Source: Candidatus Rifleibacteriota bacterium
Lineage (GTDB): Bacteria > Muiribacteriota > Ozemobacteria > Ozemobacterales > Ozemobacteraceae
NCBI GenBank assembly: GCA_012520995.1
Contig: JAAYNI010000071.1
Span: 1,224 to 65,223 of the forward strand
Direction of reading: 5' to 3'
DNA length: 64,000 nt
A model generated the notes under the pieces. It was not told the origin of the DNA. It did no database searches and saw only the letters and a program-made list of their open reading frames with translations. The position numbers were made by a program, and so were the translations under genes. The first letter of the stretch is position 1, and each line of letters begins with the position of its first letter. Shown here in pieces: positions 122-58,441 of the stretch.

Positions 122-272
122 GATTTTTACCCTTTAAAAAACTACATAAGTAATGGCAAAGCAATTATTAGGTACAGCAATTGAGTCTAAATAATTACAC
201 TGTCCACCGCCCACTGACAACAGATCACTGTTTGTACTTGTGCACATGCCTGCCTTATGCTATAGATAATGC

Positions 273-7546: not shown

Positions 7547-7799
7547 ATCTGACTCCTTCCAGCATTTATTGTAAGTTGGTGGTATGTTTGTTTGTCATAT
7601 CTTTAACATCCGCAATATGATAAGTCTATTCAAAAAATACTTCAAGGAAATTTGAATAGCTTTCGAACCATGAAACCCACGAACTAGGGTAGCATGCCTA
7701 AAAACCAAAAACATCTTTAAACCGCAGACCACACAGAATACACGGAAAAGAATAAAATATTTTTCATCCAGTTGATATCAAAATCAGTGACGCGTGGTG

Positions 7800-7862
7800 G
7801 GTGGCGAGCTTAATTAAATTAGAAATTATAAAGTATAAATTAGAAATAACTGTTTAGAACTC
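7800..7862 (+). repeat. 63-bp dispersed intergenic repeat core, copy 1
   Basis: GGTGGCGAGCTTAATTAAATTAGAAATTATAAAGTATAAATTAGAAATAACTGTTTAGAACTC; matches 19827-19889 (60/63) and 23624-23686 (62/63). Confidence 0.95.
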
Positions 7863-7985
7863 AATCGCTGTAAATAATAACAGCTTTTATATGCTGATAA
7901 ACAGCTGAAGCTATGATGTAGAGAAACTAATAATACTTAGGTAGCGTAAATCAAATGGAAAATATTGACAATTGTCCTTTTTATC

Positions 7986-8008
7986 CCCTACACCCTACGC
8001 CCTACGCC
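7986..8008 (-). repeat. Period-7 array (CCCTACA CCCTACG CCCTACG)
   Basis: Reverse complement of the TAGGGNG arrays at 11447, 25578 and 27028. Confidence 0.8.
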
Positions 8009-8180
8009 TCCTCCCTGATTTTAAGCTATGATTAAAATCCCATCTGTGGAAAGAAAAAAATCTGTCCGATAATAAACATTTAGAGAAAACAAAGCACTAG
8101 AAAATAGAGAAGCTACATCTGGTGTTTTTATTAATGATCCTTTATAATTGAAGAGGTAGACTTATTCTTAGGAGAAAGCT

Positions 8181-9086
8181 TTGAAAAGAACTCTGAAACT
8201 TTTGTCTGTTCAAACTGCTCTTGCTTTGTTCTTTTGCGCTGCTTCTAGAGCAGATGCTCAGCTCATTTTGCCAATGCCTGGGCAACAGCAGCAGCCGTCT
8301 TCAGACACTGGAAGCCAGCAGATGCCTCAGCAACAGCGGCAACAACAGCAACAGAGTGGAACTCAAAAACCTGCCTCTGGATACTCTCAGCAGCAACAGC
8401 GATATCAGCAGCAACAACAGCAACAACAGCAACAACAGCGACGGCAGAGTCAACAAGAGAGCAGCAACACAGGCTTGAGTACTTCAAGCGGTCTTTTCTT
8501 GCCCATGCCAGGCATGCCGCAACAGCAGCCTGCTCAAACAAAACCTTCTGGAAAGACAGGAGGTTTCATACCTCCCGCTTATTCTACGACTACAACTCAA
8601 TCTGAACAGATTGCGGAAGAGATTGTTCCTTCTTATTCCGGCTATGGACAAGCTACTTCTCCTCAAAAGCAGGCAGTGACTCCTGAGCAGGAGAAAAAAA
8701 TAGACGAACTGCTAGACTCTCAAATGAAACCGCAAATGGCAGCTGCGGGCAACGAAGAAATAGAAATTTTCCCAAGAGATACAAGCGCAGCTCTTTTCAT
8801 GATGATGAAAACTTGGGAGTGTGAAGATTATGATGCCAGAACTCTTTTGACGCATGCTGTAAAAGTTTATGCAGAGGATGCAGGTGAAACATTCGAAATA
8901 AACTTTCACTTGCCTGCTACGGAGTATCCAAACATTTCCTGTAACGAAGAAGATGTCACTTTAGATGAATTATTGGATGAGGTGACCTCCAGACTTGGAT
9001 ATTCTTGGGGAGCTGATATACCTAATGGCGTGATTCATATTTATCCTGGAGGACTTGTTGCTGAGGATGAATACAGTTTATGGTAA
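8181..9086 (+). CDS. Secreted Gln/Pro-rich protein with a C-terminal STN-like domain
   Basis: SD AGGAG before a TTG start, signal peptide ending ADA, poly-Q tracts; ISCNEEDVTLDELLDEVTSRLGYSW...GVIHIY resembles the secretin/TonB N-terminal short domain. Confidence 0.7.
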   Translation: MKRTLKLLSVQTALALFFCAASRADAQLILPMPGQQQQPSSDTGSQQMPQQQRQQQQQSGTQKPASGYSQQQQRYQQQQQQQQQQQRRQSQQESSNTGLSTSSGLFLPMPGMPQQQPAQTKPSGKTGGFIPPAYSTTTTQSEQIAEEIVPSYSGYGQATSPQKQAVTPEQEKKIDELLDSQMKPQMAAAGNEEIEIFPRDTSAALFMMMKTWECEDYDARTLLTHAVKVYAEDAGETFEINFHLPATEYPNISCNEEDVTLDELLDEVTSRLGYSWGADIPNGVIHIYPGGLVAEDEYSLW

Positions 9087-9119
9087 ACAAAATAATATAG
9101 GATTATTTAAGGAGTGATA

Positions 9120-10175
9120 ATGACAAAAAAAATCTTGAAGAACTGCTCTCCCTTTCTTTTATTAGTAGCGTTGTTCTTTGCTGTTTCCCCAGCCTTTGCC
9201 TTTAAGCGTGATTGGAAAGCATATCCTGCTTGGATCGAAGTTACAGGCGTTAAGCGAGTTTGTGCTGTGGGAGATATTCACGGCAGTTTTGATCAAATGG
9301 CTGATACTTTTAAAGCCTTGGGAGTCGCAGAAAGAACCGCTCCTGATGCTTTTACTTATGAATGGATTGGAAAAGACACTGTGCTTGTGTTAGTAGGCGA
9401 CTATACAGATAGAGGTCTTTATAGCAAACAAGTGTATGATGCTATACATGATTTGCAGAAAAAAGCTGCAAAAGCTGGCGGACAAGTAATAGCTCTTATG
9501 GGTAATCACGAAATAATGATGATTAATGGGCAAGTCAAAGAATGGGCTCAAACACTGAAATCTCATAAGAAACAGCATTATCAAAATACCATAGATTCTT
9601 TTACAAGAGATGGAGTCAACTATGATGAAGCTATTTCTGAACGCGGTTTTTATGGGCAAATGATAAGAAATATGCCTCTTTTTGCGGTAGTTAACGGTTA
9701 TTTCTTTGTGCATGGCGGAATAAATAACCGCCCGATAACCAAGTCTACATTAGCTGCCGATTTTATGGATGATATTGAAAGAGGTAACTTCAAAAAAGGC
9801 ATCTTTATGAACCATGATATGGTTCTTTGGAATCGTGACTGGTGGGATGATCAAAACCTATTGGAACGCAATCTTAAGTTGTTGGGCGTTTCAGGCATAG
9901 TATTTGGTCACACTCCAGGCGCTTTGGGAAGCGATAAGGGCAAAATAGCTTCTAAATATGACAAAATAGTATCTATAGATATAGGCATGAATCCTGTATA
10001 TGGATTCAGCAATGGCGGCGGTTTGGAGATATTGGCGGTTGCTGGTAATAAACTTCAGTTCAAGGCCATATATCCTGACAAGAATCCCGAACATATATTT
10101 ACTGTGCCCATGCCTGCTTCAGCCTATCCGCAAACAAATCGTAAACACTGGATGTACAACTATAACAACAAGTGA
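9120..10175 (+). CDS. Secreted calcineurin-like metallophosphoesterase (Shewanella-like phosphatase type), copy 1
   Basis: Signal peptide; GDIHG, GDYTDRG, GNHE, HGG, FGHT, IDIGM; ATG at 9120 follows SD GGAG. Confidence 0.9.
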   Translation: MTKKILKNCSPFLLLVALFFAVSPAFAFKRDWKAYPAWIEVTGVKRVCAVGDIHGSFDQMADTFKALGVAERTAPDAFTYEWIGKDTVLVLVGDYTDRGLYSKQVYDAIHDLQKKAAKAGGQVIALMGNHEIMMINGQVKEWAQTLKSHKKQHYQNTIDSFTRDGVNYDEAISERGFYGQMIRNMPLFAVVNGYFFVHGGINNRPITKSTLAADFMDDIERGNFKKGIFMNHDMVLWNRDWWDDQNLLERNLKLLGVSGIVFGHTPGALGSDKGKIASKYDKIVSIDIGMNPVYGFSNGGGLEILAVAGNKLQFKAIYPDKNPEHIFTVPMPASAYPQTNRKHWMYNYNNK

Positions 10176-10200
10176 CGAGTGCTGAGTGGCGAGTGGTGAG
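10171..10200 (+). repeat. Period-7 array AGTGACG AGTGCTG AGTGGCG AGTGGTG, containing the upstream gene's stop codon
   Basis: TGA at 10173-10175 lies in the first unit; related arrays at 7786, 11412, 19813 and 23603. Confidence 0.85.
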
Positions 10201-10304
10201 AAACTCCCAAAACTATTATAACCACAAAACACACGAAAAACACGAAGTAAGGACAAAAATAGCCTTTTTATTCGCTGATTATGCAGATAAACGCAGATTC
10301 ACAC

Positions 10305-10338
10305 AGCTTGGATTTTAAGCTCTGCTTAAATCCAAGCT
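10305..10338. repeat. Hairpin AGCTTGGATTTTAAGC-TCT-GCTTAAATCCAAGCT
   Basis: 15-bp stem with one bulge between the phosphatase paralogs; weaker relative at 8017-8039. Confidence 0.65.
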
Positions 10339-10363
10339 CCCTTATTCTTTGACTAAAATAATT

Positions 10364-11416
10364 ATGAAATTTAATGCCTTTAAAAAAACTGCAATATTTT
10401 TATTTGTTTTGTTGCTCTGGGCAGGCGCGCCTCTATTTGCGTATGAACGAGATTGGAGTGCTAATCCTGCTTGGATAGAGATTGCGGGAGCCAGGCGTGT
10501 TTGTGCGGTTGGCGATATTCACGGTGCGTTTGACCAAATGGCGGCAACTTTAAAAGCCTTAGGAGTAGCTGAGAGAACATCGCCTGATTCTTTTGCATAT
10601 AATTGGATCGGAAAAGATACTGTTCTCATCTTTTTGGGAGACTATGCAAATAGAGGTCTTTATACCAAACAGGTCTATGACGCTATACATGACCTTCAAC
10701 AAAAGGCTCCCAAGTATGGCGGGCAAGTAATAGCTTTGTTGGGAAACCATGAAATCAGACTGCTAAACGGCGAAATACAAGAGAAAGCGGCAAAGAAAAA
10801 GTCTAAAAAAAATCAAGATTACCAAAATACCATAGATTCGTTTACTAGAGACGGTCTTGATTATAATGAAGCTGTTTCTGAAAAAGGCTTCTATGGAAAG
10901 ATGGTAAGAAATATGCCTTTGTTCGCTGTTATAAATGGCTATTTTTTCTCTCATGGAGGTCTCAACAACGATCCTGTTAGTAAAGCGACTCTATCTTCTG
11001 CGTTCATGGATGCTATTGACAAAGGCGACTTCAACAAAGGAATTTTAGTAAATGAAGAGATGCTCATCTGGAATCGCGATTGGTGGGATGACTTTGAACT
11101 TATTGAACGCAATCTGAAGCTTCTTGGCGTTTCAGGCGTTGTCTTTGGGCATACTCCAGGCGCATTCGGCAAAGATAAAGGCAAGATAGCTTCCAAATAC
11201 GACAAAATAGTAGCTATAGACATAGGCATGACTCCGCTTCACGGATACAGTAATGGCGGGGGATTGGAGATACTTATGTTGTCTGATAAAAGCCTGCAAT
11301 TCAAGGCTATATATCCAGATTTACCGGAAGAACATATTTTTTCAGTGCCTGCACCTTCTGAACCTCCTTCTCATTCTGAACGAGAATTTTGGATGTACGA
11401 CTACAACAACCGGTGA
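10364..11416 (+). CDS. Secreted calcineurin-like metallophosphoesterase, copy 2 (tandem paralog)
   Basis: Same motifs (GDIHG, GDYANRG, GNHE, HGG, FGHT, IDIGM); colinear with copy 1. Confidence 0.9.
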   Translation: MKFNAFKKTAIFLFVLLLWAGAPLFAYERDWSANPAWIEIAGARRVCAVGDIHGAFDQMAATLKALGVAERTSPDSFAYNWIGKDTVLIFLGDYANRGLYTKQVYDAIHDLQQKAPKYGGQVIALLGNHEIRLLNGEIQEKAAKKKSKKNQDYQNTIDSFTRDGLDYNEAVSEKGFYGKMVRNMPLFAVINGYFFSHGGLNNDPVSKATLSSAFMDAIDKGDFNKGILVNEEMLIWNRDWWDDFELIERNLKLLGVSGVVFGHTPGAFGKDKGKIASKYDKIVAIDIGMTPLHGYSNGGGLEILMLSDKSLQFKAIYPDLPEEHIFSVPAPSEPPSHSEREFWMYDYNNR

Positions 11417-11469
11417 CGAGTGGTGAGTGGCGTGTAGCAAAACAAAGGGGGGTAGGGCGTAGGGGCTAG
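11412..11469 (+). repeat. Composite period-7 arrays (AGTGRYG, then TAGGGNG) starting at the copy-2 stop codon
   Basis: GGTGACG AGTGGTG AGTGGCG (TGA at 11414-11416), then GGGGGG TAGGGCG TAGGGGC TAG. Confidence 0.8.
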
Positions 11470-11543
11470 AAGGATAAAAACCTTGAAACTCCAAACTGAA
11501 CTTTGCTTTTGGGCGTTGACTAGGATTTCTACACTTTACACTA

Positions 11544-11715
11544 GCTAGGCGTGTTTGTGCGGTTGGTGATATTCATGGAATCTTTTACCAATGTCGGTGT
11601 TCTGGAAATACTTCTTTTGCCTGGCAATAGATTGCAGTTTAAGACTATATATCCAGATGTGCCGGAAGAACATCTGTTTACGGTTTCTATGCCGACTTTA
11701 GCCTATGTTCCTTGA
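11544..11715 (+). pseudogene. Internally deleted remnant of a third phosphatase copy
   Basis: Reads ARRVCAVGDIHG, then in another frame NVGVLEILLLPGNRLQFKTIYPDVPEEHLFTVSMP; these match the N- and C-terminal parts of the two intact paralogs. Confidence 0.9.
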
Positions 11716-11768
11716 AGGTTGGACTTGATGTAAAAGTGAAAGATGAGACTTAACTTCTTTTAAATGAA

Positions 11769-12905
11769 ATGTTTTCTTTAAAAAAAATCCGAATTCTTCT
11801 ATTGTCTGTCTTTGCAGCGGCCACACTTTTGCTCTTGCTTTCCCCGAACCTTAAAGAGCCTTCCCAATGTACTTTTTATCCTGCAGTAATTCATGCAGAG
11901 TCAGTTTCGCCGCTCTCACCTGGCAAACCATCAGATATAGTTTTTTATTTTATTCAACATGGAAAGCTTGTAGAGAGTATGGACTTTAAAGCAGTTTTTA
12001 CTTTTACATGCAAAGACGGTAAACAAGTTATTCAGGAAAAACACAGTCATTTTCTCTCTAACTATGCTTTAAAAGCGACTGCGGAGCCTCCTGAAGATGC
12101 TGTCTCTTGTCTTGTTGAGCTTTATTCGCCGAAGGATCAAAAAAGTTTTTCAAGAGAACTTAAAGTCAGTACAGATCTGCTCTTAGGAGTAGCTCCGCCT
12201 CATATGCCTTTTTTTTATCTTTCGCCCTTGAAATTTGAATTAGCGGTTTTTGACCCTCATGATTTAGTTCTGAAATCCGACGAAGTTATTGTATCCAGCT
12301 TGTCGCGTGATGAGGAAATCTTACTTGCTAATGAACATTTGTCAGGCGGGGAAGAATTGATCGAAAGCGTTTTTGTTATAAAACAAGAAAAAGCTTCAGA
12401 GAAGATAAACTTTAAAGCTGTATGGCAAAATCAAACCAAAACCTTTCACATCAGATTGTTTAAGATTAACCCTTCAATGCTTAAAAGCTCATATAATGAG
12501 TTCTTTTATCCTCTGGAGGCGAAAAATATATCTGAAAATAAATATCTTAAAAAGCTGGAAAAAAGTCATAGCATGGTTAAGGTGTCGATTGCAAAAGAGT
12601 TTTCTTCAAAAGCTGGTTTTCTGGAGCTTTGGCAAAACAGAAAGTTGATAAATCTGATTGCCTTGGATGGCAGTGAAAGCTATCGTTTGAGTTTTGGCGC
12701 CAGAAATAAATCTCTGCCTTTTTTTGTAAAGATTGCTATTTACGAAGAGGATAAGATTCATTTTGAGCGTGAATCTATTTATTATGAAACTCCTGACTCA
12801 GAAAACCCTGTGACAAAACTGCTGTACCGAATAGCACAGCTTAAATCCCCGGTAATAGGCAAAAGTTGTGCGGAACTATTCTTAAACAGCTGTTTGGCTA
12901 ATTAA
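11769..12905 (+). CDS. Hypothetical exported or membrane-anchored protein
   Basis: 378-aa ORF with a hydrophobic N-terminus; no recognised motif; overlaps the recN stop by 8 bp. Confidence 0.6.
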   Translation: MFSLKKIRILLLSVFAAATLLLLLSPNLKEPSQCTFYPAVIHAESVSPLSPGKPSDIVFYFIQHGKLVESMDFKAVFTFTCKDGKQVIQEKHSHFLSNYALKATAEPPEDAVSCLVELYSPKDQKSFSRELKVSTDLLLGVAPPHMPFFYLSPLKFELAVFDPHDLVLKSDEVIVSSLSRDEEILLANEHLSGGEELIESVFVIKQEKASEKINFKAVWQNQTKTFHIRLFKINPSMLKSSYNEFFYPLEAKNISENKYLKKLEKSHSMVKVSIAKEFSSKAGFLELWQNRKLINLIALDGSESYRLSFGARNKSLPFFVKIAIYEEDKIHFERESIYYETPDSENPVTKLLYRIAQLKSPVIGKSCAELFLNSCLAN

Positions 12906-18133: not shown

Positions 18134-18306
18134 TTATCCGATTAGCCTTTCTAATTTTGTTACAGACTCAGCGATTGTAGCGCTAATTACGGCTTCATTT
18201 CAAGCTAGGAACTTATTAATTGCCGGATTTGTAAAGAATCTTCTATTTATCTCATAAATTTGGTAAAATTTAAGAAACTATATAATTAATGCGAAAAGAG
18301 GAATTT

Positions 18307-19767: not shown

Positions 19768-19826
19768 AAGCAGGGTTTGGAGGATGGGGTGTCGGGGGTA
19801 GCAAAAAATAAGAGTGATAAGTGTCG

Positions 19827-19889
19827 GGTGGCGAGCTTAATTAAATTAAAAATTATAAAGTATAAATTAGAAAAAATTGTTTAGAACTC
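19827..19889 (+). repeat. 63-bp dispersed intergenic repeat core, copy 2
   Basis: 60/63 identical to 7800-7862; lies between the two peptidase paralogs. Confidence 0.95.
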
Positions 19890-20032
19890 AATACTACAAC
19901 TGATAACTGCTTATCGAGTCATAATAAATAACTGTAATCTAGCTTTTATTAAGAAACATTTATTTTTACATTCCACAATACACACTTTACATTATTAAAG
20001 CTCGACATCCTGTGTACAGTTTACATATAAAA

Positions 20033-21493
20033 ATGAATAGAAACTTTAGATGTTCTAAGTCTTTAATTGTTCTCATAATACTGTTTTTTTCTCTTTCTAC
20101 AGCCTATTCGCAGAATACAATTCCAGTAAGACTTTTTAAGGAAGATTTTATACATGTAAAGAGCAGTGCTACTATCTTTGGCTTGGCACTGGAAGCTAAA
20201 GGCAGTAAACCGTCATTAAGTGATTATGATAAGCTTATTGATATTTTTGAAACTAAATCCCGTTCAGGAGACCTGTCTCCCAGTGAATCTCATGATTATG
20301 CCGCACTTCTTACAACAAAAGCGATTTTGACTCTGGAAACTGCTCAATATGATGAGCTTGAAACAATGTTTTCTAGGGCCTGTGAGCTTCTGCCTGAGGA
20401 TCATAAAGTCTTCATGTTGAAAGGTGATTTTTACCTTTTTTATGAGAATAATGATAAGGCCGTCAATGCCTATATTCAGGCTGCAAAGTTAAACCCTGAA
20501 TACGAAATGGCTCACATCAAAGCTGGAATAACAGCTTTGAAAACTGCACAATATGCCAGAGCGACGGAATCTTTTGCTTTTCCTCAACAAAATAATGCGG
20601 AAGATTTTCTCTTAGCTTATTGGCATGCCTATGCTAGATATAAAAACCATGATTTTGAAAGAGCCCAAGATATATTGGAGTATTCTTTGAATTTGCTTGA
20701 ATATTCAATGCAACGGCCAGATGATGAGCTGATAGATGATATGCGGGAACTTTTATCCAAAGCTAAGACTTATGTATCTGGTGATGAAGACGCCTCGATT
20801 ATTAAAGATAAAAAATTCATAATCAGCTTTGCCGGGACTTCAGAAGAGGACATAGGCTGTATGACATTTGAGGCTTTGGACGATGTGTATTATGAGGTGA
20901 CTTCTTTTCTGAACTTTGATCCTCATATGCAAGTCAGAGTGACTTTCATGAATAGAGAAGATTATGCGGCAAGCGGGGCTATGGAGTGGTTTGGGGCTCA
21001 CATAGATACGCTCCACATACATGTTCCTCTTACCAGAGGATACAGGCATCCGACTTATGCTAAAGCACTGCTGGCTCACGAATTCACTCATGCCATTATT
21101 CATATGAAAACCAAGGGGAATATACCCACTTGGTTAAATGAGGGAATAGCTCAATATCAGGAATTCACTGTTTGGTTTGGTTCGCCTGATATCATAAGAC
21201 CTGACTATGAAGGCCTTATGAAACATATGATTGAAAATAACAGCTTGCCTGATTTGAGTGAGGCTGAGCAAATGTTTCGCTCCAAAGACGGAAATGAAGC
21301 TACAAAAGCTTATATTGCTTCCTATTTGGCGATCAGATACATAGTGGAGAAACACGGAGAAAAAAGCTTAGCAAAGATATGTGATGCCTTGGGCAAAGAC
21401 ATGACTATTTCAGAAGCTTTGAATAGGGTTGTCGGCTATGATTTTGAAACATTAAACAACTCTTACAAGCTTTGGGTTCATGCTTTTCAATAA
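20033..21493 (+). CDS. TPR plus peptidase MA-like zinc metallopeptidase, copy 2 (tandem paralog)
   Basis: Colinear with copy 1; identical block LAHEFTHAIIHMKTKGNIPTWLNEGIAQYQEF. Confidence 0.85.
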   Translation: MNRNFRCSKSLIVLIILFFSLSTAYSQNTIPVRLFKEDFIHVKSSATIFGLALEAKGSKPSLSDYDKLIDIFETKSRSGDLSPSESHDYAALLTTKAILTLETAQYDELETMFSRACELLPEDHKVFMLKGDFYLFYENNDKAVNAYIQAAKLNPEYEMAHIKAGITALKTAQYARATESFAFPQQNNAEDFLLAYWHAYARYKNHDFERAQDILEYSLNLLEYSMQRPDDELIDDMRELLSKAKTYVSGDEDASIIKDKKFIISFAGTSEEDIGCMTFEALDDVYYEVTSFLNFDPHMQVRVTFMNREDYAASGAMEWFGAHIDTLHIHVPLTRGYRHPTYAKALLAHEFTHAIIHMKTKGNIPTWLNEGIAQYQEFTVWFGSPDIIRPDYEGLMKHMIENNSLPDLSEAEQMFRSKDGNEATKAYIASYLAIRYIVEKHGEKSLAKICDALGKDMTISEALNRVVGYDFETLNNSYKLWVHAFQ

Positions 21494-21525
21494 TCTTTCC
21501 TAAGTCCGCTGGGTGAGTGCCTTTA

Positions 21526-21554
21526 TTGACACATTGGAGTCTATCGGATATAAT
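21526..21554 (+). promoter_or_regulatory. Consensus sigma70 promoter TTGACA-N17-TATAAT
   Basis: TTGACA at 21526-21531, TATAAT at 21549-21554, SD GGAGGA at 21562-21567, ATG at 21577. Confidence 0.85.
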
Positions 21555-21576
21555 CGGACATGGAGGAATTCCCTGT

Positions 21577-21903
21577 ATGAACAAGTATAAATTACCAGCA
21601 TTGCTTTTAGCGACTCTGTGTTTGTCTGGTTGCATGCAGGATGGTTCGAACTCTGTTTCTACGCGTTCGCCTGTTCCCCCCTTGAAACGCAAAGCTGTAC
21701 AGACTAAGCAGCATCCTGTCTCACAAAATAAACTTGAGCAGGAATATGACAAAGCCTACAAGGAATATACTGAAGCCTATAATGAGTATGTCCGCTTACT
21801 TCGTGAAAGCGGTCCTCAGACCAGAGTCACCCTAGATGCCTTGCTTGATTATCAAAAAAAATATAATTTTTACATCAAACTCAAGGAACAGCTCGGCAAA
21901 TAG
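21577..21903 (+). CDS. Small helical lipoprotein of unknown function
   Basis: Lipobox LSGC after a hydrophobic stretch; strong SD and promoter. Confidence 0.8.
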   Translation: MNKYKLPALLLATLCLSGCMQDGSNSVSTRSPVPPLKRKAVQTKQHPVSQNKLEQEYDKAYKEYTEAYNEYVRLLRESGPQTRVTLDALLDYQKKYNFYIKLKEQLGK

Positions 21904-21960
21904 TAACAAACATAACTTGCTGAGAGTCAGAATAATGCAGCAGCTTGAAAGAGCTTGGCG

Positions 21961-22986
21961 ATGAGTAAAAATCTCCTCTTTGTCATTTTAGTGGCGATTT
22001 TGCTCTTTTTGTATTTAGGAACTTTTCAAAGCTCCTCGAATACCCCTTATCGCAAAACTATAATTGCGATGGATACTTATGTGACTACATCAGTATATTC
22101 AAAAGACCCGCAAGCAGCTTTTGATAAGGTTTTTCAAATTTTCTCTGATGTCGAGCGCAAAGTTTCTTTTTTTGAAGAAAAGTCGGCTCTTTCCTGTTTA
22201 AATAAAAGACATTTGATCAAGGCTGGAGAAGCTGGTTTTGAAACACTTAAAGCCTTGCTGGAGATAACTCTTTCATATGTGAAAGAGACAGATGGTTACT
22301 TTGATCCGTCATTTGCAATTTATCAAGCAGCTTACGGATTTTATGACCAAAACCCAAGAATTCCCGCTGATGAAGATATTAAGGCGATTGTACATTTAGC
22401 TTCATTTCAAAACAATGTACATATTTCAGAAGAAGAGATAAAAACTGAAAGAGGAACTTTAATAAATCTGGGTGGTATAGCAGGCGGCTTTGCATTGGAA
22501 GAATGTAAAAAGGCTCTCTTGCAAAAGGGATATGAGAACTTTTTGATCGATGATGCTGGCGATATAATAACAGAAGGTACAAAGCCAGACGGCTCTTTGT
22601 GGAAAATAGGAGTAAAAGACCCTCTGGATGAAAACCCCAACTCCTTGGCGGCTCATATTGTTTTGCCAGGTGGAAAAGCTGTTTCAACCTCTGGCAGCTA
22701 CGAAAGATTTATAGAGGTAGAAGGCAAAAAATTAAACCATATATTCGACCCTATGACAGGAAGACCTGCTGAGAGCTTTGTTTCTGTAACTGTAATAGGA
22801 GATAGTCCAATTTTTGTGGATGTTTTAAGCACGGCTTTGTTTGCAATGCCTGAAGAGAAAGCCATATCTTTTACGGAAAATTCTAAAATAGCAGCATTTT
22901 TCATTACGGCTGATGGAAGGCGGATTATTTCGGAGTCGGCAAAAAATTATATCACTTTGCCGAAGAGGCAAAATGCGCAACTCTGA
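21961..22986 (+). CDS. apbE: FAD:protein FMN transferase ApbE
   Basis: AMDT, TDGYFDP, INLGGIAGG, DAGDI, WKIGVKDP, AVSTSGSYERF, HIFDPMTG, DVLSTALF. Confidence 0.93.
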   Translation: MSKNLLFVILVAILLFLYLGTFQSSSNTPYRKTIIAMDTYVTTSVYSKDPQAAFDKVFQIFSDVERKVSFFEEKSALSCLNKRHLIKAGEAGFETLKALLEITLSYVKETDGYFDPSFAIYQAAYGFYDQNPRIPADEDIKAIVHLASFQNNVHISEEEIKTERGTLINLGGIAGGFALEECKKALLQKGYENFLIDDAGDIITEGTKPDGSLWKIGVKDPLDENPNSLAAHIVLPGGKAVSTSGSYERFIEVEGKKLNHIFDPMTGRPAESFVSVTVIGDSPIFVDVLSTALFAMPEEKAISFTENSKIAAFFITADGRRIISESAKNYITLPKRQNAQL

Positions 22987-23509
22987 CGATATTTCCAAAT
23001 TGGAACAACCTGACTCTTCTTTGTCAGATTCATCTGAAACTGAAGACTCTAAATCAGAGGATATGAATTGCGAGGAGACAAAAGGGCAGGTTTCATTGGA
23101 AAGTATCGAAGAAAGTCAAAAGCCGATTTTCTTCAATAAGAGTGATTGGGCAACTATTATTTTATTGCTTTTATTAGCTCCGATTTTTTTTCTGTTAGGC
23201 ACTGCTGATAAGGGCAGAATTATCAAATATGAAATTTCCTCTTTTGGAGATAAACCTGAAAAAATCACTATAATAGCACCAGAATCTGGAATTTATGAGC
23301 TTGACGCTCTTGCAGGCAAGTTTGTTCTTGAATTTGCCAAGGATGGGAAAGTAAAAGTCAAATCATCAGAATGTCCTGGCAAAAACTGTATGAGACAAGG
23401 TTTCGCGGGGGCAGGGGAGAGCATAATATGTATTCCCAATATGCTGATGGTCGAACCTATAGGAGAAAAACAAAGAGCAATCTCAGAAGTAGACGCTGTC
23501 ACGAAGTAG
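22973..23509 (+). CDS. NusG domain II-containing membrane protein
   Basis: One TM helix, then SSECPGKNCMRQG...IICIPN and a C-terminal DAV; typical neighbour of apbE and Gx genes. Confidence 0.85.
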   Translation: MRNSDDISKLEQPDSSLSDSSETEDSKSEDMNCEETKGQVSLESIEESQKPIFFNKSDWATIILLLLLAPIFFLLGTADKGRIIKYEISSFGDKPEKITIIAPESGIYELDALAGKFVLEFAKDGKVKVKSSECPGKNCMRQGFAGAGESIICIPNMLMVEPIGEKQRAISEVDAVTK

Positions 23510-23515
23510 CTAATG

Positions 23516-23602
23516 CTAGTGCTGCTTTTTCACTAAAAGTTACCTGTTTAATTTCAAGAAAGTTAATAAATGCTTTATGCTTATCTGATGCAGCAACAGC
23601 AC
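23516..23602 (+). mobile_element. Degenerate copy of the CTAG-bounded mini inverted-repeat element
   Basis: Aligns end to end with 26929-27019 (CTAGTGCT...CTAAAA...CAAG...TTAT.TGATGCA.CAA..GCAC). Confidence 0.6.
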
Positions 23603-23623
23603 CGTGGCGAGTGATGAGTGGCT

Positions 23624-23686
23624 GGTGGCGAGCTTAATTAAATTAGAAATTATAAAGTATAAATTAGAAATAATTGTTTAGAACTC
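23624..23686 (+). repeat. 63-bp dispersed intergenic repeat core, copy 3
   Basis: 62/63 identical to 7800-7862; preceded by an AGTGRYG array at 23603. Confidence 0.95.
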
Positions 23687-23827
23687 TGATACTCAAGCTT
23701 CCAACAGTTTTTAGCTGCTTATAAATATTCGAAACCCAAAATATAAAATGTAGAGTGTAAAAAAGAATGTTCGCTCAGAAAAAAAGTGTCACCCTTTAGG
23801 GGGCATGTCACTGTGCTTAAAATCTCG

Positions 23828-23898
23828 TCTGTGTTAATCTGTGTTTATCTGCGGATAAAAAAGTTAAAAAGAAATATTTAGTTGCAATAAGCTCTTAG
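23828..23898 (-). repeat. Left arm of an imperfect inverted repeat flanking the Gx gene (includes a period-10 TCTGTG array)
   Basis: Its reverse complement aligns with 24414-24480. Confidence 0.75.
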
Positions 23899-23910
23899 TA
23901 AAAGGTCAAA

Positions 23911-24417
23911 ATGGAAAATGCCAGATATGAAACTTTAATAAAAACAGCTAAAATTGCAGTGCTGATAGCGGCGGCTTCAGCTTTGCAATGCTTGGAAGCA
24001 CCCATAGCTGCTGCTTTTCCTTGGGTCAAGGTCGGGCTTGCCAATATACTGACTCTTTATGCCGTGATAAGACTTTCAGCATCGGAAGCCATATTGATTG
24101 CGGCAGGGCGAACCTTTCTTTCGGCTTTGATTTTGGGTTCGCTTTTTACGCCTTTTCACTTTATGTCATTCAGCGGAGCCGTTTCATCTGCTGTCTTAAT
24201 GGCATTTTTGCATAAAGCGGCTCCTAAGATTTCGCTCTCACTAAAAAGCATCTTTGGAGCTGTAGCCAGCAACAGTGCTCAGCTCTTGGCTATATCCTTT
24301 CTTTTTAAAGCAAAGATTAATCTTTACTGGTATTTTGGAGCTGCGATTTTATTCAGCGTACCAGCAGGGCTGTTGAACGCGAAAATAACGGAGAAACTCC
24401 TGCAAGCGGACGGCTAG
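23911..24417 (+). CDS. Gx transporter family protein (heptaprenyl diphosphate synthase component I-like)
   Basis: LQCLE...PWVKVGLANI, five hydrophobic segments, SFSGA, SIFGA..SN.AQL; follows the NusG II gene. Confidence 0.88.
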   Translation: MENARYETLIKTAKIAVLIAAASALQCLEAPIAAAFPWVKVGLANILTLYAVIRLSASEAILIAAGRTFLSALILGSLFTPFHFMSFSGAVSSAVLMAFLHKAAPKISLSLKSIFGAVASNSAQLLAISFLFKAKINLYWYFGAAILFSVPAGLLNAKITEKLLQADG

Positions 24418-24529
24418 TGCTGTATTGCAGCTAAAAATTCCTTCTCCTTTTTTATCCACAGATTACACAGATGACACAGATAAGACCTGAAATTTAAAAT
24501 CCGCAGATGACGCAGATGGCCGCAGATAA
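24414..24529 (+). repeat. Right inverted-repeat arm: CTAGTGC element end plus two period-9 arrays (CACAGAT, CGCAGAT)
   Basis: CTAG at 24414-24417 contains the Gx stop codon; CCACAGATTACACAGATGACACAGAT and CCGCAGATGACGCAGATGGCCGCAGAT follow. Confidence 0.8.
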
Positions 24530-24560
24530 AGAAACCAATGACAAAATTCTTTTGTCCTGC

Positions 24561-24623
24561 GTCTGTAATTAAAAGCCAGATTGCCCAAATAAATTTGCTC
24601 AATTTGAGCTTTTAATCACAGAC
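24561..24623. mobile_element. 63-bp mini element with 16-bp terminal inverted repeats (MITE-like)
   Basis: GTCTGTAATTAAAAGC versus reverse complement GTCTGTGATTAAAAGC (15/16). Confidence 0.5.
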
Positions 24624-24926
24624 TCTGCAAAAACTTAAATCGTTTTTGCTAAAATTGGCTTCTTAAAAACAGATTAAAAAAAACAGTGGGTCGAGGGTAG
24701 CACCCGCTAATTTATACCATATCCGAAAATGGCAAAAAGCAGCGTTACAGAAAAAAATCATCTTAAAAGATGTTTTCAAGGCAATCAAAACACACCTGAT
24801 TGATCAATTCCCAGTCAGCCTGATAACATGGTTTGTGCTTTTCTTATTATTTATGATGGTATACTTTACTGCGTTCGGTGTTGAGTGAATTCCGTTTTTG
24901 AAGCTCGCCATTTGCTGCTCTCTTTG

Positions 24927-24935
24927 TGCTATAAT
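24927..24935 (+). promoter_or_regulatory. Extended -10 promoter element TGCTATAAT
   Basis: 30 nt upstream of the nitroreductase ATG with SD AAGGAG; the same 9-mer occurs at 42857 and 48034. Confidence 0.6.
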
Positions 24936-24964
24936 GCCTAAAGAGACAAAACAAGGAGAGAGAT

Positions 24965-25534
24965 ATGAACATATTTGACACAATTTATGCCAGGAAGTCA
25001 GTCAGGAGTTATACAGGAAATAAAATCAGCCAGTCGCAAATGAGACAGTTGCTTGATGCTGCCTGTGCTTCACCGATAGCCGTTTGCAGATATGAAAACA
25101 TGCATTTGACAGTAGTTTCTGATTCTGTAATTATGAACGCTTTTGAAGAGAATGATTCTAGAGCAAAGGGGCAAGAATCCCATCCTTTTCACGGTGCTCC
25201 ACAAATGATAGTAATTTCTGTAAAACCTTTTGAGTCAGACTTGCAGAACATGGAATATGCAAATGCTGGCATAGTAGCTGAAAATATTTGTTTGGCAGCG
25301 ACTGCCTTGGGGATAGGCTCTTGTATGATTTGGGGTACATTCAGAAGAGCTTTGGCAAACCAAGAGCTGCTGGATATGCTTAAGCTTCCTGAAGGCTTTA
25401 TTCCTTGCGGCGCTGTTATTGTCGGAGAAACCGAAGAGAAGTTCGCTCCTCAAAAAGGCCGCCACTGCATGAAAATAAATAGCCTCGGCTGGACAGAAGA
25501 AGGCAAGGAAATAAACCCATTCGTTAATTGCTAG
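24965..25534 (+). CDS. Nitroreductase family protein
   Basis: IYARKSVRSY, AACASP, ENICLAATALGIGSCMI, LKLPEG. Confidence 0.92.
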   Translation: MNIFDTIYARKSVRSYTGNKISQSQMRQLLDAACASPIAVCRYENMHLTVVSDSVIMNAFEENDSRAKGQESHPFHGAPQMIVISVKPFESDLQNMEYANAGIVAENICLAATALGIGSCMIWGTFRRALANQELLDMLKLPEGFIPCGAVIVGETEEKFAPQKGRHCMKINSLGWTEEGKEINPFVNC

Positions 25535-25577
25535 CACTCCCTTTTTCTAAAACTTTTTTTATCTACAGACCTTTATT

Positions 25578-25608
25578 TAGGGACTAGGGGGTAGGGAGTA
25601 GCAAAAAA
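25578..25608 (+). repeat. Period-7 array TAGGGAC TAGGGGG TAGGGAG TAGCAAA
   Basis: Same module as at 11447, 19784, 27028 and (reversed) 7986. Confidence 0.75.
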
Positions 25609-25887
25609 CAAAACCAAAAACGCAGGACAACTATTGCAGAAAAGACCAAAACATTTCTTTGGTACCCTTAATAACTCTCTTTTTTCAGTCTGGAAAGCGA
25701 GTTTTGCCGCAAATACGAACAGAGAGGCGACTTTTAATAATGTAAAGTGTAAAATCAAGATAAAATATATCCTAAAGACAAACGAAAAAAACTAACTAAG
25801 CAGGTAAAAATCAAAACTTGCTTGAGTTGGATAAATCTTTCGAATAATGATATAAAATATCTGCTATCTCTAAATTGAGTTTTTTAT

Positions 25888-26391
25888 ATGAAGAAAAAGA
25901 GACCTCCAAATAAATATGACTTAATAATGTTTTTGCTCATAGCCGTGGGCATGTTATTTTTTATGGATGCTACTTTGAAACTTATTCTGGGCGGTGTGAT
26001 AATGCTGATGGTAGGTCTTATTCTGCTTACAATAGCGGGCATTTACTATAGCGTCTTGGAGGGAAAGCGTAACTCCTTTGCTTCAGTTCATTTTCCCGGT
26101 TTAATTGCAGGTAAAAAGCAACTTTCAAATATATTAGAAAAAGCAAAAAGTGAACTGGAAACCTTAAATAGAGTTTTGTTAACTATGAGAAGAGCTCCTG
26201 AACAGGATCCAGCCCATTTTGCTTATGAACAGCTGATTAAAGAAATTGAAAAGACGACTTTGCCTAAGTTAGATGAAAGAGTGAAAGTGTTTTATGATGC
26301 CCGGAAAAGAAAATTTAATAGATACTCGACTAAATTCGTCTATAGTAATCTGTGGATAAAAATACATGAAGCTTTAGCTGGCATACTCTAG
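25888..26391 (+). CDS. Hypothetical membrane protein (two N-terminal TM helices plus a helical domain)
   Basis: 167-aa ORF; no recognised motif. Confidence 0.65.
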   Translation: MKKKRPPNKYDLIMFLLIAVGMLFFMDATLKLILGGVIMLMVGLILLTIAGIYYSVLEGKRNSFASVHFPGLIAGKKQLSNILEKAKSELETLNRVLLTMRRAPEQDPAHFAYEQLIKEIEKTTLPKLDERVKVFYDARKRKFNRYSTKFVYSNLWIKIHEALAGIL

Positions 26392-26442
26392 TATATAAGA
26401 GCTCTTTTACAGAAGAAATCAAGATTCTGAAGGAACTGTTTT

Positions 26443-26928
26443 ATGGAATATCTGGCATTTTTGCAATTATTATTAGTTACACCAGTTTTTTCGGTTATCC
26501 TAGTATCATTGGGAGCAGCATTGTTTTGGTTCATAGCCTCTCGTATGTCAAGCGAAGATGTTGATGATTGGGCTAAGAAACATTGCCCTGACCTGCTGTC
26601 TAACAAACAAATAATCTGGGACATTGCTTCTGCTGCGCTAAACAAACGCATTGAAATGGAGAATGCTGCTTCAGAAGTTAAAAGTCATCCAACTTATAAT
26701 GCACGATTGTTATCTTATGATGCTTTACATAGGAGATGCGATAAGCTTTTCAAAGAACTTCACGGCAGAATGACTGAGCTTCATGACGAGTTTCGTAAGG
26801 TGGGGGCAAAACACAGTTCCTATCAAGCAAAGGTTACAGAGATTATTGCTAAGAGCAACGCCGAAGTTGAAGAGCTTGCTATCATTAGTGAGAAACTTGA
26901 GGAGAGAATGCGGGAGCTCATAGGCTGA
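26443..26928 (+). CDS. Hypothetical membrane-anchored coiled-coil protein
   Basis: SD GAAGGA, N-terminal hydrophobic helix, heptad-rich C-terminus. Confidence 0.7.
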   Translation: MEYLAFLQLLLVTPVFSVILVSLGAALFWFIASRMSSEDVDDWAKKHCPDLLSNKQIIWDIASAALNKRIEMENAASEVKSHPTYNARLLSYDALHRRCDKLFKELHGRMTELHDEFRKVGAKHSSYQAKVTEIIAKSNAEVEELAIISEKLEERMRELIG

Positions 26929-27019
26929 CTAGTGCTTTGTTGCAGCTAAAACTTCTCTATTAAATGACAAGCAGTCAACATGGACTATTCATGGTTATTT
27001 GATGCAACAATCGCACTAG
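26929..27019. mobile_element. 91-bp CTAG-bounded mini inverted-repeat element (MITE-like)
   Basis: Left end CTAGTGCTTTGTTGCA, right end reverse complement CTAGTGCGATTGTTGCA; relatives at 23516, 24414 and (reversed) 8100 and 23898. Confidence 0.7.
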
Positions 27020-27156
27020 AGGGAGTGTAGGGCGTATGGGGTAGAGGGTAGTGAAACACTTTTCAACTCAGTATTACAGCCAACGACTGCTTTAAGATAT
27101 TATTAAATGGTTGAAACTTTAAGATTTGAAAAACAGAGAACAAAGCCTAAAATAAA

Positions 27157-27229
27157 TGTACCCGATAACGAACAATTAGGCACAACAGTCTACTAGTACT
27201 GTGTGCCTAAAAATTTATTATCGGGTACA
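27157..27229. terminator. Long two-part stem-loop just downstream of dnaJ (probable 3' end structure)
   Basis: TGTACCCGATAA/TTATCGGGTACA (12 bp) enclosing TTAGGCACA/TGTGCCTAA (9 bp); T-rich run after it on both strands. Confidence 0.6.
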
Positions 27230-27236
27230 ATTTTTT

Positions 27237-33702: not shown

Positions 33703-33721
33703 TTTTATCTTCCTCGGGTTG

Positions 33722-34015
33722 TCAGTTCGCTACGACAGCCAGAATGTCTTCTTCTTTGAGAATCAGATAAGAATCTTCGCCGAATTTAACTTCTGTTCCG
33801 GCATATTTGGAGAACACAACGTTGTCGTCCTTTTTTACCTGGAGAGAAATTCTCTGGCCGTCATTGTTGAGTTTGCCGGGGCCTACAGCTACCACAACGC
33901 CTTCTATGGGGCGTTCTTTGCTTGCGGTTTCAGGAAGGATAATTCCGCCTTTTGATACTTCTTCTGTTTCTTTGGGCTGTATAATAACTCTGTCATTCAA
34001 AGGTTTTAAATTCAT
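33722..34015 (-). CDS. groS: Co-chaperonin GroES
   Basis: [41 protein letters not shown]. Confidence 0.98.
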
Positions 34016-34060
34016 TTTTAGTTTCCTTTCGTTAGGCTTTTATTGATTACGGCTTTTAAA

Positions 34061-58404: not shown

Positions 58405-58410
58405 AGCTTC

Positions 58411-58441
58411 ATTTCTAATTTATACTTTAAATTTTAAATTT
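58411..58441 (-). repeat. Partial inverted copy of the 63-bp repeat core
   Basis: ATTTCTAATTTATACTTTA (58411-58429) is an exact 19-nt reverse complement of part of the core. Confidence 0.75.

Follow-up and report, generated by a model that had tools for sequence, protein, structure and literature searches.

Short tandem arrays between the genes of an uncultured digester bacterium as probable arms of two small palindromic cassette families

The question raised by this locus is what the short tandem arrays between its genes are, and whether they take any part in duplicating those genes. The window, by which we mean the whole 64-kb stretch of DNA that was analysed, comes from an uncultured digester bacterium. 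A sequence-only reading had described its spacers as mosaics of a few modules (a to f), placed at every tandem-paralog junction and around accessory genes, and had suggested that they are empty landing sites or scars of a repeat-guided cassette insertion, duplication and deletion system. The mosaic structure was confirmed by reading the sequence and by Tandem Repeats Finder (TRF), and the following features were recognised:

198..230, minus strand: outlying a-type heptamer array, reversed, 3 units (sequence read; its spacer scored as array-bearing)
7719..7750, plus strand: e-type array of the E2 subtype (CACRGAA units, period 9), a module that is multi-copy genome-wide
7786..7808, plus strand: a-type heptamer array, AGTGRYG (sequence read, blastn-short)
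7805..7865, plus strand: AT-rich core of about 63 bp with b-type heptamers, TTAGAAA/TTATAAA (TRF 7816-7847; blastn-short)
7986..8048, minus strand: right arm, with a reversed c-type array (7986-8012), hairpin module H (8016-8040) and one reversed E1 unit (8041-8048) (TRF, sequence, blastn-short)
10171..10200, plus strand: a-type array, 4 units (TRF, sequence, motif-chain scan)
10221..10336, plus strand: degenerate E2-like array (10221-10246), E1 array (10272-10300) and H-like hairpin (10303-10336) (TRF, sequence, blastn-short)
11412..11545, plus strand: a-type (11412-11435), c-type (11447-11470) and d-type (11526-11545) arrays (sequence, motif-chain scan)
19784..19995, plus strand: mosaic separating two peptidase paralogs, with degenerate c (19784), a (19813-19835), b core (19832-19892) and degenerate d (19964-19995) (TRF, sequence, blastn-short)
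23603..23690, plus strand: a array (23603-23633), then b core (23634-23690) (TRF, sequence, blastn-short)
23746..23856, minus strand: right arm, with a reversed d array (23746-23765) and a reversed E1 array (23828-23856) (TRF, sequence, motif-chain scan)
24453..24530, plus strand: left arm, two E1 arrays in succession, CACAGAT/CGCAGAT units, 3 each (TRF, sequence, motif-chain scan, blastn-short)
25578..25603, plus strand: c-type array (TRF, sequence, motif-chain scan)
25738..25756, minus strand: reversed d-type array, 2 units, weak (sequence read)
26929..27020, no strand: module f, a small element whose terminal inverted repeats read CTAGTGC...GCACTAG and which stands directly behind a stop codon (sequence, blastn-short)
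27022..27055, plus strand: degenerate c-type array (sequence, blastn-short)

Modules a (7786, 10171, 11412, 19813, 23603), b (within the core at 7805, 19832 and 23625) and e (CACAGA type; 7720, 10221, 10272, 24456, 24500 and, reversed, 23828) were found where they had been reported. Module c (TAGGGNG) stands at 7986 (reversed), 11447, 25578 and 27028 and is degenerate at 19784, while module d is weak, with just two units at 11526, 23746 and 25738 and a degenerate form at 19964. The outlier at 198-230 is a true array; the one at 58395-58441 is weak and consists of a single CGCAGATGA unit and a 19-base core piece. TRF called period-7 arrays at 7816-7847, 7986-8008, 10171-10200, 19842-19873, 23640-23671 and 25578-25601, and period-9/10 arrays at 10223-10246, 23828-23851, 24457-24481 and 24502-24527. 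Module f was rejected as an array arm, since its own terminal inverted repeats mark it as a separate, unrelated MITE family. The window contains gene-less arms, solo or nested, together with this MITE; as had been stated, it holds no TIGR02436 or TIGR04256 gene (no match on its contig at E <= 0.001).

Scanned in full with strict motif chains, the 2.84-Mb genome yielded 487 arrays (a 109 plus 6 of a variant form, c 72, b 27, d 11, e 262), against 0-4 per family in three mononucleotide shuffles (0, 0.3, 1.3, 1.3 and 3.7). Arrays are present on 20 of the 21 contigs longer than 40 kb, and 95-100% of them lie outside a crude ORF mask that leaves just 12% of the DNA intergenic. By blastn-short against the genome, the window spacers 7700-8100, 19810-19900, 23600-23690, 24450-24530 and 26929-27200 are mostly multi-copy; a query with 7805-7880 gave 52 matches, its own copy included, and the E-H-c/a module order of 7986..8048 recurs at other genome sites. 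Since 260 of the 262 e arrays have 2-3 units, they are unlike slippage-driven repeats. Pairs of e arrays spaced 100-400 bases are arranged forward-then-reverse in 13 cases and in the opposite order in 1. By rough estimate, some 80% of the e sites consist of a solo arm with no partner within the spacer, which counts against a simple two-ended transposon model, and no target-site duplication could be defined at the arms.

The proposed tie to paralog junctions did not hold genome-wide. Among spacers of 100 bases or more, arrays occur in 3/18 tandem-paralog spacers and in 235/741 others (Fisher odds ratio 0.43, p 0.21), and two of those three lie in the window. Their presence tracks spacer length and orientation, largely regardless of gene class, a spread that the sequence-only reading had itself named as evidence against its proposal: array-bearing spacers amount to 82/156 (53%) of the convergent, 134/420 (32%) of the tandem and 22/183 (12%) of the divergent ones. 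Arrays no more than 100 bases from the 3' end of a gene favour the sense over the antisense strand (e 97 v 11, a 47 v 12, c 41 v 0), and the outer end of an arm points toward the neighbouring gene. The arrays at the window's two paralog junctions probably reflect spacer length and orientation, not a role in duplication. They cannot be fresh duplication scars, since the paralogs, at 67% and 56% identity, are old. In both phosphoesterase paralogs the stop codon falls within an a array (the TGA of paralog 1 inside the first unit at 10171, the stop of paralog 2 inside 11412-11435), and as these two genes are just 67% identical, this indicates long retention or a precise target rather than recent random insertion. 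The same locus contains two further features:

11322..11659, plus strand: 338-base stretch missing from contigs of two other metagenomes (joint 11321>11660 in X3 and X5)
11555..11712 (about), plus strand: 3' remnant of a third phosphoesterase paralog (visual alignment of its translation with C-terminal portions of the other two, paralogs 1 and 2)

The joint was found in one contig each of X3 and X5, with long sides, and this strain deletion takes out the gene's 3' end together with arrays a, c and d. On either side of it lie direct copies, by now diverged, of the 3' end of the gene, which implies recombination between those copies and not between arrays. Of the scars that had been proposed, one of gene loss does stand beside the arrays, but no event was bounded by them: in three other metagenomes, whose contigs are about 98-100% identical, no array-bounded insertion or excision was seen. 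Contigs that bridge a spacer retain its arrays, and most contigs break at repeats.

The statement that similar arrays flank four-helix-bundle and GxxExxY genes proved correct, as the same array families bracket both gene types elsewhere in the genome. All three GxxExxY genes (TIGR04256, PF13366; a minimal PD-(D/E)XK nuclease) have forward CACAGA-type 9/10-base arrays upstream and the reverse complements downstream, and both four-helix-bundle genes (TIGR02436, PF05635, '23S rRNA intervening-sequence protein') are flanked on both sides by inverted heptamer arrays that belong to types a, b and d of the window. The genome has no c-armed gene and no Y1/RAYT transposase. The arms of the C69 GxxExxY genes are built of CACAGAT units (171 such arrays in the genome) and those of the C45 gene, 47% identical to them, of CACRGAA units (91 arrays), a split between protein subtypes and arm units that is repeated in genome G008 (loci L109 and L126). 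The candidate nuclease is 115 residues long. In a set of 29 proteins D62, E72 and K74 are each conserved in 90% or more, and the folds nearest to the nuclease model (pLDDT 95.6) are those of Cas4 SSO0001, lambda exonuclease and a restriction-endonuclease-like protein.

The association recurs in a survey set of 87 genomes of the phylum, in which related genomes are not independent. An array was called in 46/64 GxxExxY flanks, with period 8, 9 or 10 in 13, 11 and 11 (35/46) and period 7 in 2, and in 54/60 four-helix flanks, of which 39 have period 7 and 5 a period of 8-10. Inverted-copy arms were found at 23/32 GxxExxY and 20/30 four-helix loci, compared with 3/32 and 2/30 for other-locus controls. 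At least five CRCRGA triple arrays occur in 23/26 genomes with a GxxExxY gene versus 14/61 without a detectable one. These 14 hold 5 to 293 arrays, examples being a 93% complete genome with 76 and a 98% complete genome with 27; thus the gene is not needed to keep arrays. It could be overlooked in such genomes, since repeats break assemblies.

We consider it fairly probable that the arrays of period 7 and of period 9/10 form the terminal arms of two small palindromic cassette families. Speaking against this are the lack of array-bounded insertions or excisions in the contigs of the three other metagenomes, the many solo e arms, the a arrays kept on the stop codons of two diverged paralogs, the arrays of genomes with no detectable GxxExxY gene, the failure to define a target-site duplication and the absence of a c-armed gene. 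One could instead defend the repeat-guided insertion, duplication and deletion system specific to paralog junctions and accessory genes by pointing to arrays at both paralog junctions of the stretch, to the gene-fragment scar and strain deletion at arrays, and to the rearrangement and expansion of the stretch compared with the nearest relatives, in which peptidase and phosphoesterase are encoded by a single gene each and the order grpE-dnaK-dnaJ-peptidase is colinear; array-bearing spacers also number 7/9 in 7-27.3 kb vs 0/5 in the rest of the window, in a post hoc comparison. However, genome-wide enrichment at such junctions is absent, neighbouring array-bearing spacers cluster weakly (36% v 29%, p 0.09), the paralogs are old, and the strain deletion is explained by the diverged 3'-end copies, and we judge this reading very improbable. 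It is hardly credible that the arrays are plain simple-sequence repeats from replication slippage, neutral or serving as contingency loci. Single-unit length differences do exist in some contigs (7 bases missing at 7794, 8 added at 8006), and a heptamer excess is known in some bacterial genomes from the available parts of PMC4679880 and PMC4692102, but the variants fall in multi-copy modules (depth 75-110) and may derive from other loci, unit number is capped at about three with units differing within one array, the arrays form inverted pairs, and the core motif is kept across a phylum of very different base composition.

An unlikely explanation, though one with several points in its favour, is that the arrays are cis elements used by the host at gene boundaries, as binding sites or as RNA stems for processing, stabilisation or insulation; the cassette proteins would then be trans-acting partners and the gene-less arrays functional sites, not relics. 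The unit number fixed at about three, a period of 9-10 bases that approximates one helical turn, the strict sense-strand position just behind stop codons, and the a arrays kept on the stops of two paralogs at 67% identity all agree with it. An RNA-library contig that runs from 8447 to 11833, through both array spacers, adds weakly to this, as contigs do not prove transcription, and the available part of PMC4990558 describes cutting by RNase III of the stem of intervening sequences with a four-helix gene. On the other hand, no conserved host role is needed, because the nearest relatives (G007 and G018, with 0-2 arrays and no cassette gene) are free of arrays where the orthologous gene ends, and whole genera lack them altogether. 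The phosphoesterase orthologues of four same-family genomes, these two included, have no arrays 3' of the gene, and ordinary terminator-like hairpins stand there in G018 and G004. Moreover, module order and orientation change between spacers, T-runs sit 5' of the arms and not on the 3' side, so that the arms are not intrinsic terminators, and no Rfam family matched the arrays. We think it quite improbable that the arrays are pre-existing landing pads, that is, hairpin-forming targets preferred by small genes and MITEs as REP sequences attract insertion sequences; this idea is close to the 'empty landing sites' of the sequence-only reading. A pilin-like gene (C100:1820-2311) and an antitoxin and ParE pair (C8:21162-21691) are indeed found between forward and reverse e arms, modules are nested in one another, and the separate MITE adjoins arrays at 26929-27055. 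However, only these two non-cassette cargos were found when forward-reverse e pairs separated by 400-1500 bases were inspected, the C69 GxxExxY start codon falls within the left array, and the matching of protein subtype and arm unit across genomes fits a gene and arms that travel as one unit.

Cyanobacterial STRR are tandem heptamers of intergenic DNA that favour a small unit number and often form convergent inverted pairs; the analogy that had been drawn with them is one of kind only, since the present host is not a cyanobacterium. The 23S rRNA intervening sequences of Coxiella and Leptospira, in the available part of PMC4990558, carry a small S23p/PF05635 four-helix-bundle ORF of the same family between terminal inverted repeats able to form a long stem, and are regarded as selfish elements of unknown mobility; in contrast, the arms described here lie between protein genes, consist of tandem 7-base units and have mostly lost the ORF. 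The Xanthomonas and Nostoc heptamers GGGAATC and GGGGAYT (Rehm et al. 2015, PMC4692102, available part) are likewise intergenic and tandem, with a preferred small unit number and often in convergent inverted pairs (70 and 75 in two Xanthomonas genomes), but their unit sequences and phylum are different. That text is silent on four-helix and cassette genes, with 0 occurrences of 'four helix', whereas here each array type belongs with one family of cassette genes, and arrays of a second class, built from 8-10-base units, accompany a nuclease gene. MITEs and REP/REPIN with RAYT (PMC3116915, available part) similarly have many short gene-less palindromic intergenic copies, few protein-coding masters and enrichment at 3' ends. 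Unlike them, the present arms are tandem arrays instead of a single inverted repeat, show no target duplication and occur in a genome without RAYT, where the candidate proteins, the PD-(D/E)XK nuclease and the four-helix bundle, are neither of them a known transposase. The TAACTGA direct repeats of Beggiatoaceae and cyanobacteria (PMC4679880, available part) also form abundant intergenic heptamer arrays of patchy phylogenetic spread, with stop codons in forward orientation, but they lie mostly just upstream of start codons, while ours lie mostly just behind stop codons and form inverted arms.

According to the cassette reading, one family would have a GxxExxY gene enclosed by inverted arrays, with roughly three CACAGA-type units 8-10 bases long, and the other a four-helix-bundle gene between inverted arrays of 7-base units. 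As the genome has 3 + 2 cassette genes and about 490 arrays, nearly all arrays, including all those of the window, are gene-less, whether paired, solo or nested. The arms may have spread as the ends of cassettes or of gene-less MITE-like derivatives, mobilised in trans by cassette proteins that probably recognise the tandem units, and they would persist where harm is small, behind stop codons and between convergent genes, and be rare in promoter-bearing divergent spacers. The arrays look like gene-less leftovers of small selfish elements, and not like a gene-duplicating machine.

The short tandem arrays in the spacers of the window are strongly non-random. A strict motif-chain scan of the Candidatus Rifleibacteriota genome (2.84 Mb, 101 contigs, 40.5% G+C, rated 96% complete) found 109+6 arrays of module a (AGTGRYG), 72 of module c (TAGGGNG), 27 of module b (TTAGAAA or TTATAAA, inside a core of about 63 bp), 11 of module d (TTTACAC type) and 262 of module e (CACAGA type, period 9/10), as against 0 to 3.7 arrays per family when the same scan was run on the shuffled genome. 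Between 95 and 100% of the arrays are intergenic by a crude ORF mask that leaves only 12% of the DNA as intergenic. Tandem Repeats Finder reports 318 period-7 rows, 246 of them intergenic, and the b core alone has 52 blastn-short matches; most of each of the window's array spacers recurs elsewhere in the genome. Two subtypes make up the e arrays, E1 (CACAGAT, 171 arrays) and E2 (CACRGAA, 91 arrays). A hairpin module, H, is found at about 57 sites, all intergenic, and adjoins 18 of the 171 E1 arrays.

The region of interest, at 7.5-27.3 kb of the window (C31:1224-65223), carries in order nifS, nifU, a Q-rich protein gene, two metallophosphoesterase paralogs, recN, spoIID, a TPR gene, two MA-peptidase paralogs, apbE, a NusG-II protein gene, a heptaprenyl-synthase-I-like gene, a nitroreductase gene, two small genes of unknown kind, dnaJ and dnaK. 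Both sequence inspection and Tandem Repeats Finder clearly recover modules a, b, c and e where the sequence-only reading had placed them, and module d is present as well, although short or degenerate. The CTAGTGC ends named module f are also real, but they terminate a separate small element with inverted termini of its own and are not part of the array system. The e arrays of the window (about three units per arm, each 8-10 bases long and built on a CRCRGA-type core) and the module f elements are as follows.

7719, e array
10221, e array
10272, e array
23828, e array, reversed
24453, e array, forward
24498, e array
26929-27020, module f element with MITE-like inverted ends (CTAGTGC...GCACTAG), directly on or after a stop codon
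24414-24445, module f element, likewise placed
23516-23540, module f element, likewise placed

Rfam covariance models gave 0 matches at E <= 0.1 in 7000-28000. A further hairpin lies between convergent genes at 27150-27236, with 35-base arms that are 80% complementary and a central CTAG; its TTATCGGGTACA motif reappears beside e arrays on other contigs. The Q-rich gene (8181-9086) encodes a glutamine-rich protein of 301 residues through CAG/CAA tandem repeats (Tandem Repeats Finder rows at 8328-8447), and contigs from other runs seem to be cut there. The stretch itself is present in biogas and anaerobic-digester metagenomes from 16 studies.

The sequence-only reading had connected such arrays with genes for four-helix-bundle proteins (the 'IVS protein', TIGR02436) and GxxExxY proteins (TIGR04256), and the flanks of these genes in the present genome bear this out. 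It had also stated that the window holds no such gene, and indeed the window's contig has 0 matches to either model at E <= 0.001; the two TIGR02436 matches (one intact, one broken) and the three TIGR04256 matches of the genome are all on other contigs. The proteins are assigned to PF05635 and PF13366 (PD-(D/E)XK), respectively. Upstream of each of the three GxxExxY genes stand about three CACAGA-type units in forward orientation, and downstream the reverse complements of these units, an arrangement that we call a cassette, a gene between inverted arrays or arms. Two of them are on contig C69, at 6983-7327 (L004) and 1324-1599 (L006, truncated at its 5' end), and the GxxExxY ATG on this contig sits in the last units of the left array, so that a promoter would not fit between the arm and the gene. 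Arm subtype follows protein subtype: the C69 genes have E1 arms and the C45 gene, whose protein is 47% identical, has E2 arms. Another genome of the phylum, G008, likewise has one gene per protein subclade with matching arm types (L109, L126). The broken four-helix gene on contig C41 has forward and reverse a arrays on either side, and the intact one on C79 is flanked by b-type arrays, with a d array alongside; no cassette gene with c arms was found in this genome.

The units of the e arrays in the window are the same as those that flank the three GxxExxY genes, and its a, b and d unit types are the arms of the C41 and C79 four-helix genes. The heptamer arrays of the window are gene-less and mostly unpaired; none of its e pairs encloses a gene or forms a clean hairpin, and its e arms are solo or face outward, as at 23828 (reversed) and 24453 (forward). 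Taken as a whole, the arrays of the window look like gene-less arms of the two cassette families. Elsewhere in the genome, forward and reverse e-type arms bound other cargo: an antitoxin and ParE-toxin pair (C8:21020-21835, L165) and a gene for a pilin-like protein that has a methylation motif at its N-terminus (C100:1667-2583, L164) occupy the position where GxxExxY genes sit at other sites.

The arms are placed by clear rules. Adjacent e arrays 100-400 bases apart are ordered forward-then-reverse in 13 cases and oppositely in 1. Such forward-reverse pairs bound entire spacers with the other modules nested within, the recurrent order being E1, H hairpin, an a or c array, and then the mirror image; the majority of arms stand without a partner in their spacer. 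Where an array comes within 100 bases of the 3' end of a gene, it is on the sense rather than the other strand by 97 to 11 (e), 47 to 12 (a) and 41 to 0 (c), and at the same distance from a 5' end e arrays favour the antisense strand by 55 to 7. This strand bias at both gene ends yields the rule that an arm turns its outer end towards the adjacent gene. The window obeys it, with the array at 23828 reversed before the gene at 23911 and the one at 24453 forward after the stop codon of that gene.

Arrays occur in 238 of the 759 spacers of at least 100 bases, namely in 82/156 convergent, 134/420 tandem and 22/183 divergent ones, and the rate climbs with spacer length. The sequence-only reading had tied the arrays to paralog junctions, as part of a possible repeat-guided system of cassette insertion, duplication and deletion, but no enrichment was found: 3/18 tandem-paralog spacers carry arrays versus 235/741 others (p 0.21), and two of those three belong to the window. 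The arrays are thus a genome-wide feature set by spacer length and orientation, not by paralogy. A third tandem-paralog junction of the window (33703-34060, 68% identity, 358-base spacer) has no array by the strict scan. Neighbouring array spacers cluster weakly (36% v 29%, p 0.09), and the local density, with arrays in 7/9 spacers at 7-27.3 kb and in 0/5 beyond, is real but was picked post hoc. Moreover, since the paralogs at the two array-bearing junctions are 67% and 56% identical, the arrays are not fresh duplication scars.

Turnover of genes in this neighbourhood does have support. Downstream of the second paralog, immediately behind arrays a, c and d, lies a remnant of the 3' part of a third metallophosphoesterase copy (11555-11712), and in contigs of two further metagenomes position 11321 is joined to 11660, so that 338 bases (11322-11659), arrays a, c and d included, are absent. 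The joint has on either side a diverged version of the 3' end of the gene, the two sharing a 14-base identical stretch, and therefore homologous or short-homology recombination explains the deletion. In the deleted form the gene gets a shorter, ancestral-looking C-terminus. The nearest relatives have one phosphoesterase gene and one peptidase gene. In these relatives the phosphoesterase gene ends earlier and no array comes after it, whereas a terminator-like hairpin does so in 2 of the 4 genomes examined; both window paralogs are about 15 codons longer than these orthologues (10130-10200, 11370-11435). Each of the two terminates at a TGA that lies in the first unit of an a array, and the array thus supplies the stop codon. 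In the two nearest relatives (L158, L159) grpE, dnaK, dnaJ and the one MA-peptidase gene are colinear and on one strand, with the peptidase gene next after dnaJ. At 18289-28361 of the window the peptidase gene is duplicated and inverted relative to dnaJ, with seven genes between them.

The survey of 87 genomes of the phylum found TIGR04256 in 26 and TIGR02436 in 35. An array was called in 46 of the 64 GxxExxY flanks, with period 8 in 13, 9 in 11, 10 in 11 and 7 in 2, and in 54 of the 60 four-helix flanks, with period 7 in 39 and 8-10 in 5. Exact 10-mers are common to both flanks in inverted orientation at 23/32 GxxExxY and 20/30 four-helix loci, compared with 3/32 and 2/30 when one flank was taken from another locus; in direct orientation they are common to both flanks at 6 and 7 loci. 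At least five triple CRCRGA arrays are present in 23/26 genomes with a GxxExxY gene versus 14/61 without (Fisher odds ratio 26), related genomes among these counts not being independent. Dozens to more than 100 such arrays were seen in G035, G070, G014, G016 and G015, where the GxxExxY gene was undetected; fairly complete among these are G035 (76 arrays), G016 (35) and G015 (27). The explanation is either that arrays persist after the gene is lost or that cassettes drop out of the assembly. The period labels, five of them set by eye (among them L105, which may be period 9), cluster on the protein tree, but this is not evidence of co-evolution, because co-descent yields the same pattern.

Among 29 GxxExxY proteins G17, G19, L21, E22, Y25 and N103 are invariant, and D62, E72 and K74 are each conserved in at least 90%; the latter three we take to be the catalytic pattern of the PD-(D/E)XK superfamily. 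The AlphaFold model, a confident one (pLDDT 95.6), has as its nearest folds Cas4 SSO0001 (E 4.5e-4), a restriction-endonuclease-like protein and lambda exonuclease, and the profile search of solved structures returned non-significant matches only, with T7 endonuclease I at E 0.5.

The arrays were compared with several known kinds of element. REP/REPIN-RAYT systems have a gene for a Y1 (IS200/IS605-like) RAYT transposase, whereas PF01797 had 0 matches in this 96% complete genome and was detected in control genomes. A classical MITE has terminal inverted repeats and a target-site duplication; here module f does have MITE-like inverted ends, and paired e arms end in a common TATCCACAGAT-type sequence with no flanking direct repeat separable from the palindrome. 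Slippage-type repeats and contingency loci vary in the number of near-identical units. Of the e arrays, 260/262 have 2-3 units that differ within one array, and single-unit length variants were met on contigs of other metagenomes only in multi-copy modules. Intrinsic terminators were ruled out by the T-run on the 5' side of the arm. STRR heptamers belong to heterocystous cyanobacteria and have their own unit sequences. STRR identity and a cyanobacterial origin were both rejected, as the units here are AGTGRYG, TAGGGNG and TTAKAAA and the best matches of the window's DnaK are uncultured bacteria (76%, 73%) and an Omnitrophota MAG (63%), not cyanobacteria.

As to mobility, contigs of other populations that bridge the spacers have the arrays unchanged but for single-base differences (e.g. 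metagenome X3 record 1, 10176-10348), counting only covered parts as evidence; most metagenome contigs end at repeat modules. Short-sided joints (21-35 bases) between modules of different spacers were taken as copies from other loci and not as rearrangements. As regards filled versus empty states of orthologous sites, neither the nitroreductase nor the ApbE protein retrieved a relative from metagenome contigs, the RecN scan of genome contigs found none, and the peptidase scan yielded one distant match only; the proteins of the nearest relatives are about 40-80% identical to those of the window. RNA contigs of X8 span two array spacers and cannot show transcription, transcript ends or strand.

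To our knowledge, tandem arrays of 7-9 bases have for decades been described from several groups of bacteria with no mechanism given, and we likewise know of no explained function for the four-helix-bundle 'IVS protein' or the GxxExxY nucleases. An excess of heptamers, a favoured low number of units per array and inverted pairs in convergent arrangement are described for Xanthomonas and Nostoc, with no gene link in the parts of that paper used here (PMC4692102), and TAACTGA arrays are noted in Beggiatoaceae and cyanobacteria in another (PMC4679880). The same four-helix ORF lies between inverted repeats in 23S rRNA intervening sequences cut by RNase III, whose mobility is proposed, not shown, in the sections consulted (PMC4990558). 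PF13366 is tabulated as a family of unknown function (PMC3424549), and among the papers listed the name GxxExxY occurs in two, in one of them a single time and in passing. Within our literature search, which extended to neither Elhai et al. 2008 nor the TIGRFAM family texts, no paper ties the cassette genes to arrays. The present analysis adds the GxxExxY class with its arms of 8-10-base units, the period rule and the subtype matching.

Tentatively, and rating it as somewhat improbable, we propose that each of two unrelated small proteins marks out its own class of minimal selfish cassette, widespread and so far unnamed, with tandem-array ends specific to the family. The proteins would be the 115-residue PD-(D/E)XK nuclease (GxxExxY) and the four-helix-bundle 'IVS protein', and the cassette ends would be short tandem arrays, of period 8-10 and 7 respectively, in place of single inverted repeats. 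Recognising the tandem units, each protein would mobilise or process both the cassette and its gene-less copies; array spread and protein roles are what we infer here. This genome has both array classes beside candidate partner genes, and the period rule and subtype units hold over the 87 genomes. For annotation, about one third of its spacers of at least 100 bases carry arms, some of which supply the stop codons of genes, and the arms break metagenome assemblies at predictable places. Two questions are brought down to one bench-testable pairing, whether a small protein binds or cuts its own arrays. If the proposal is true, the heptamer and nonamer arrays of many bacterial phyla, which have long lacked an explanation and to which the cyanobacterial STRR belong, would be the footprint left by such elements.
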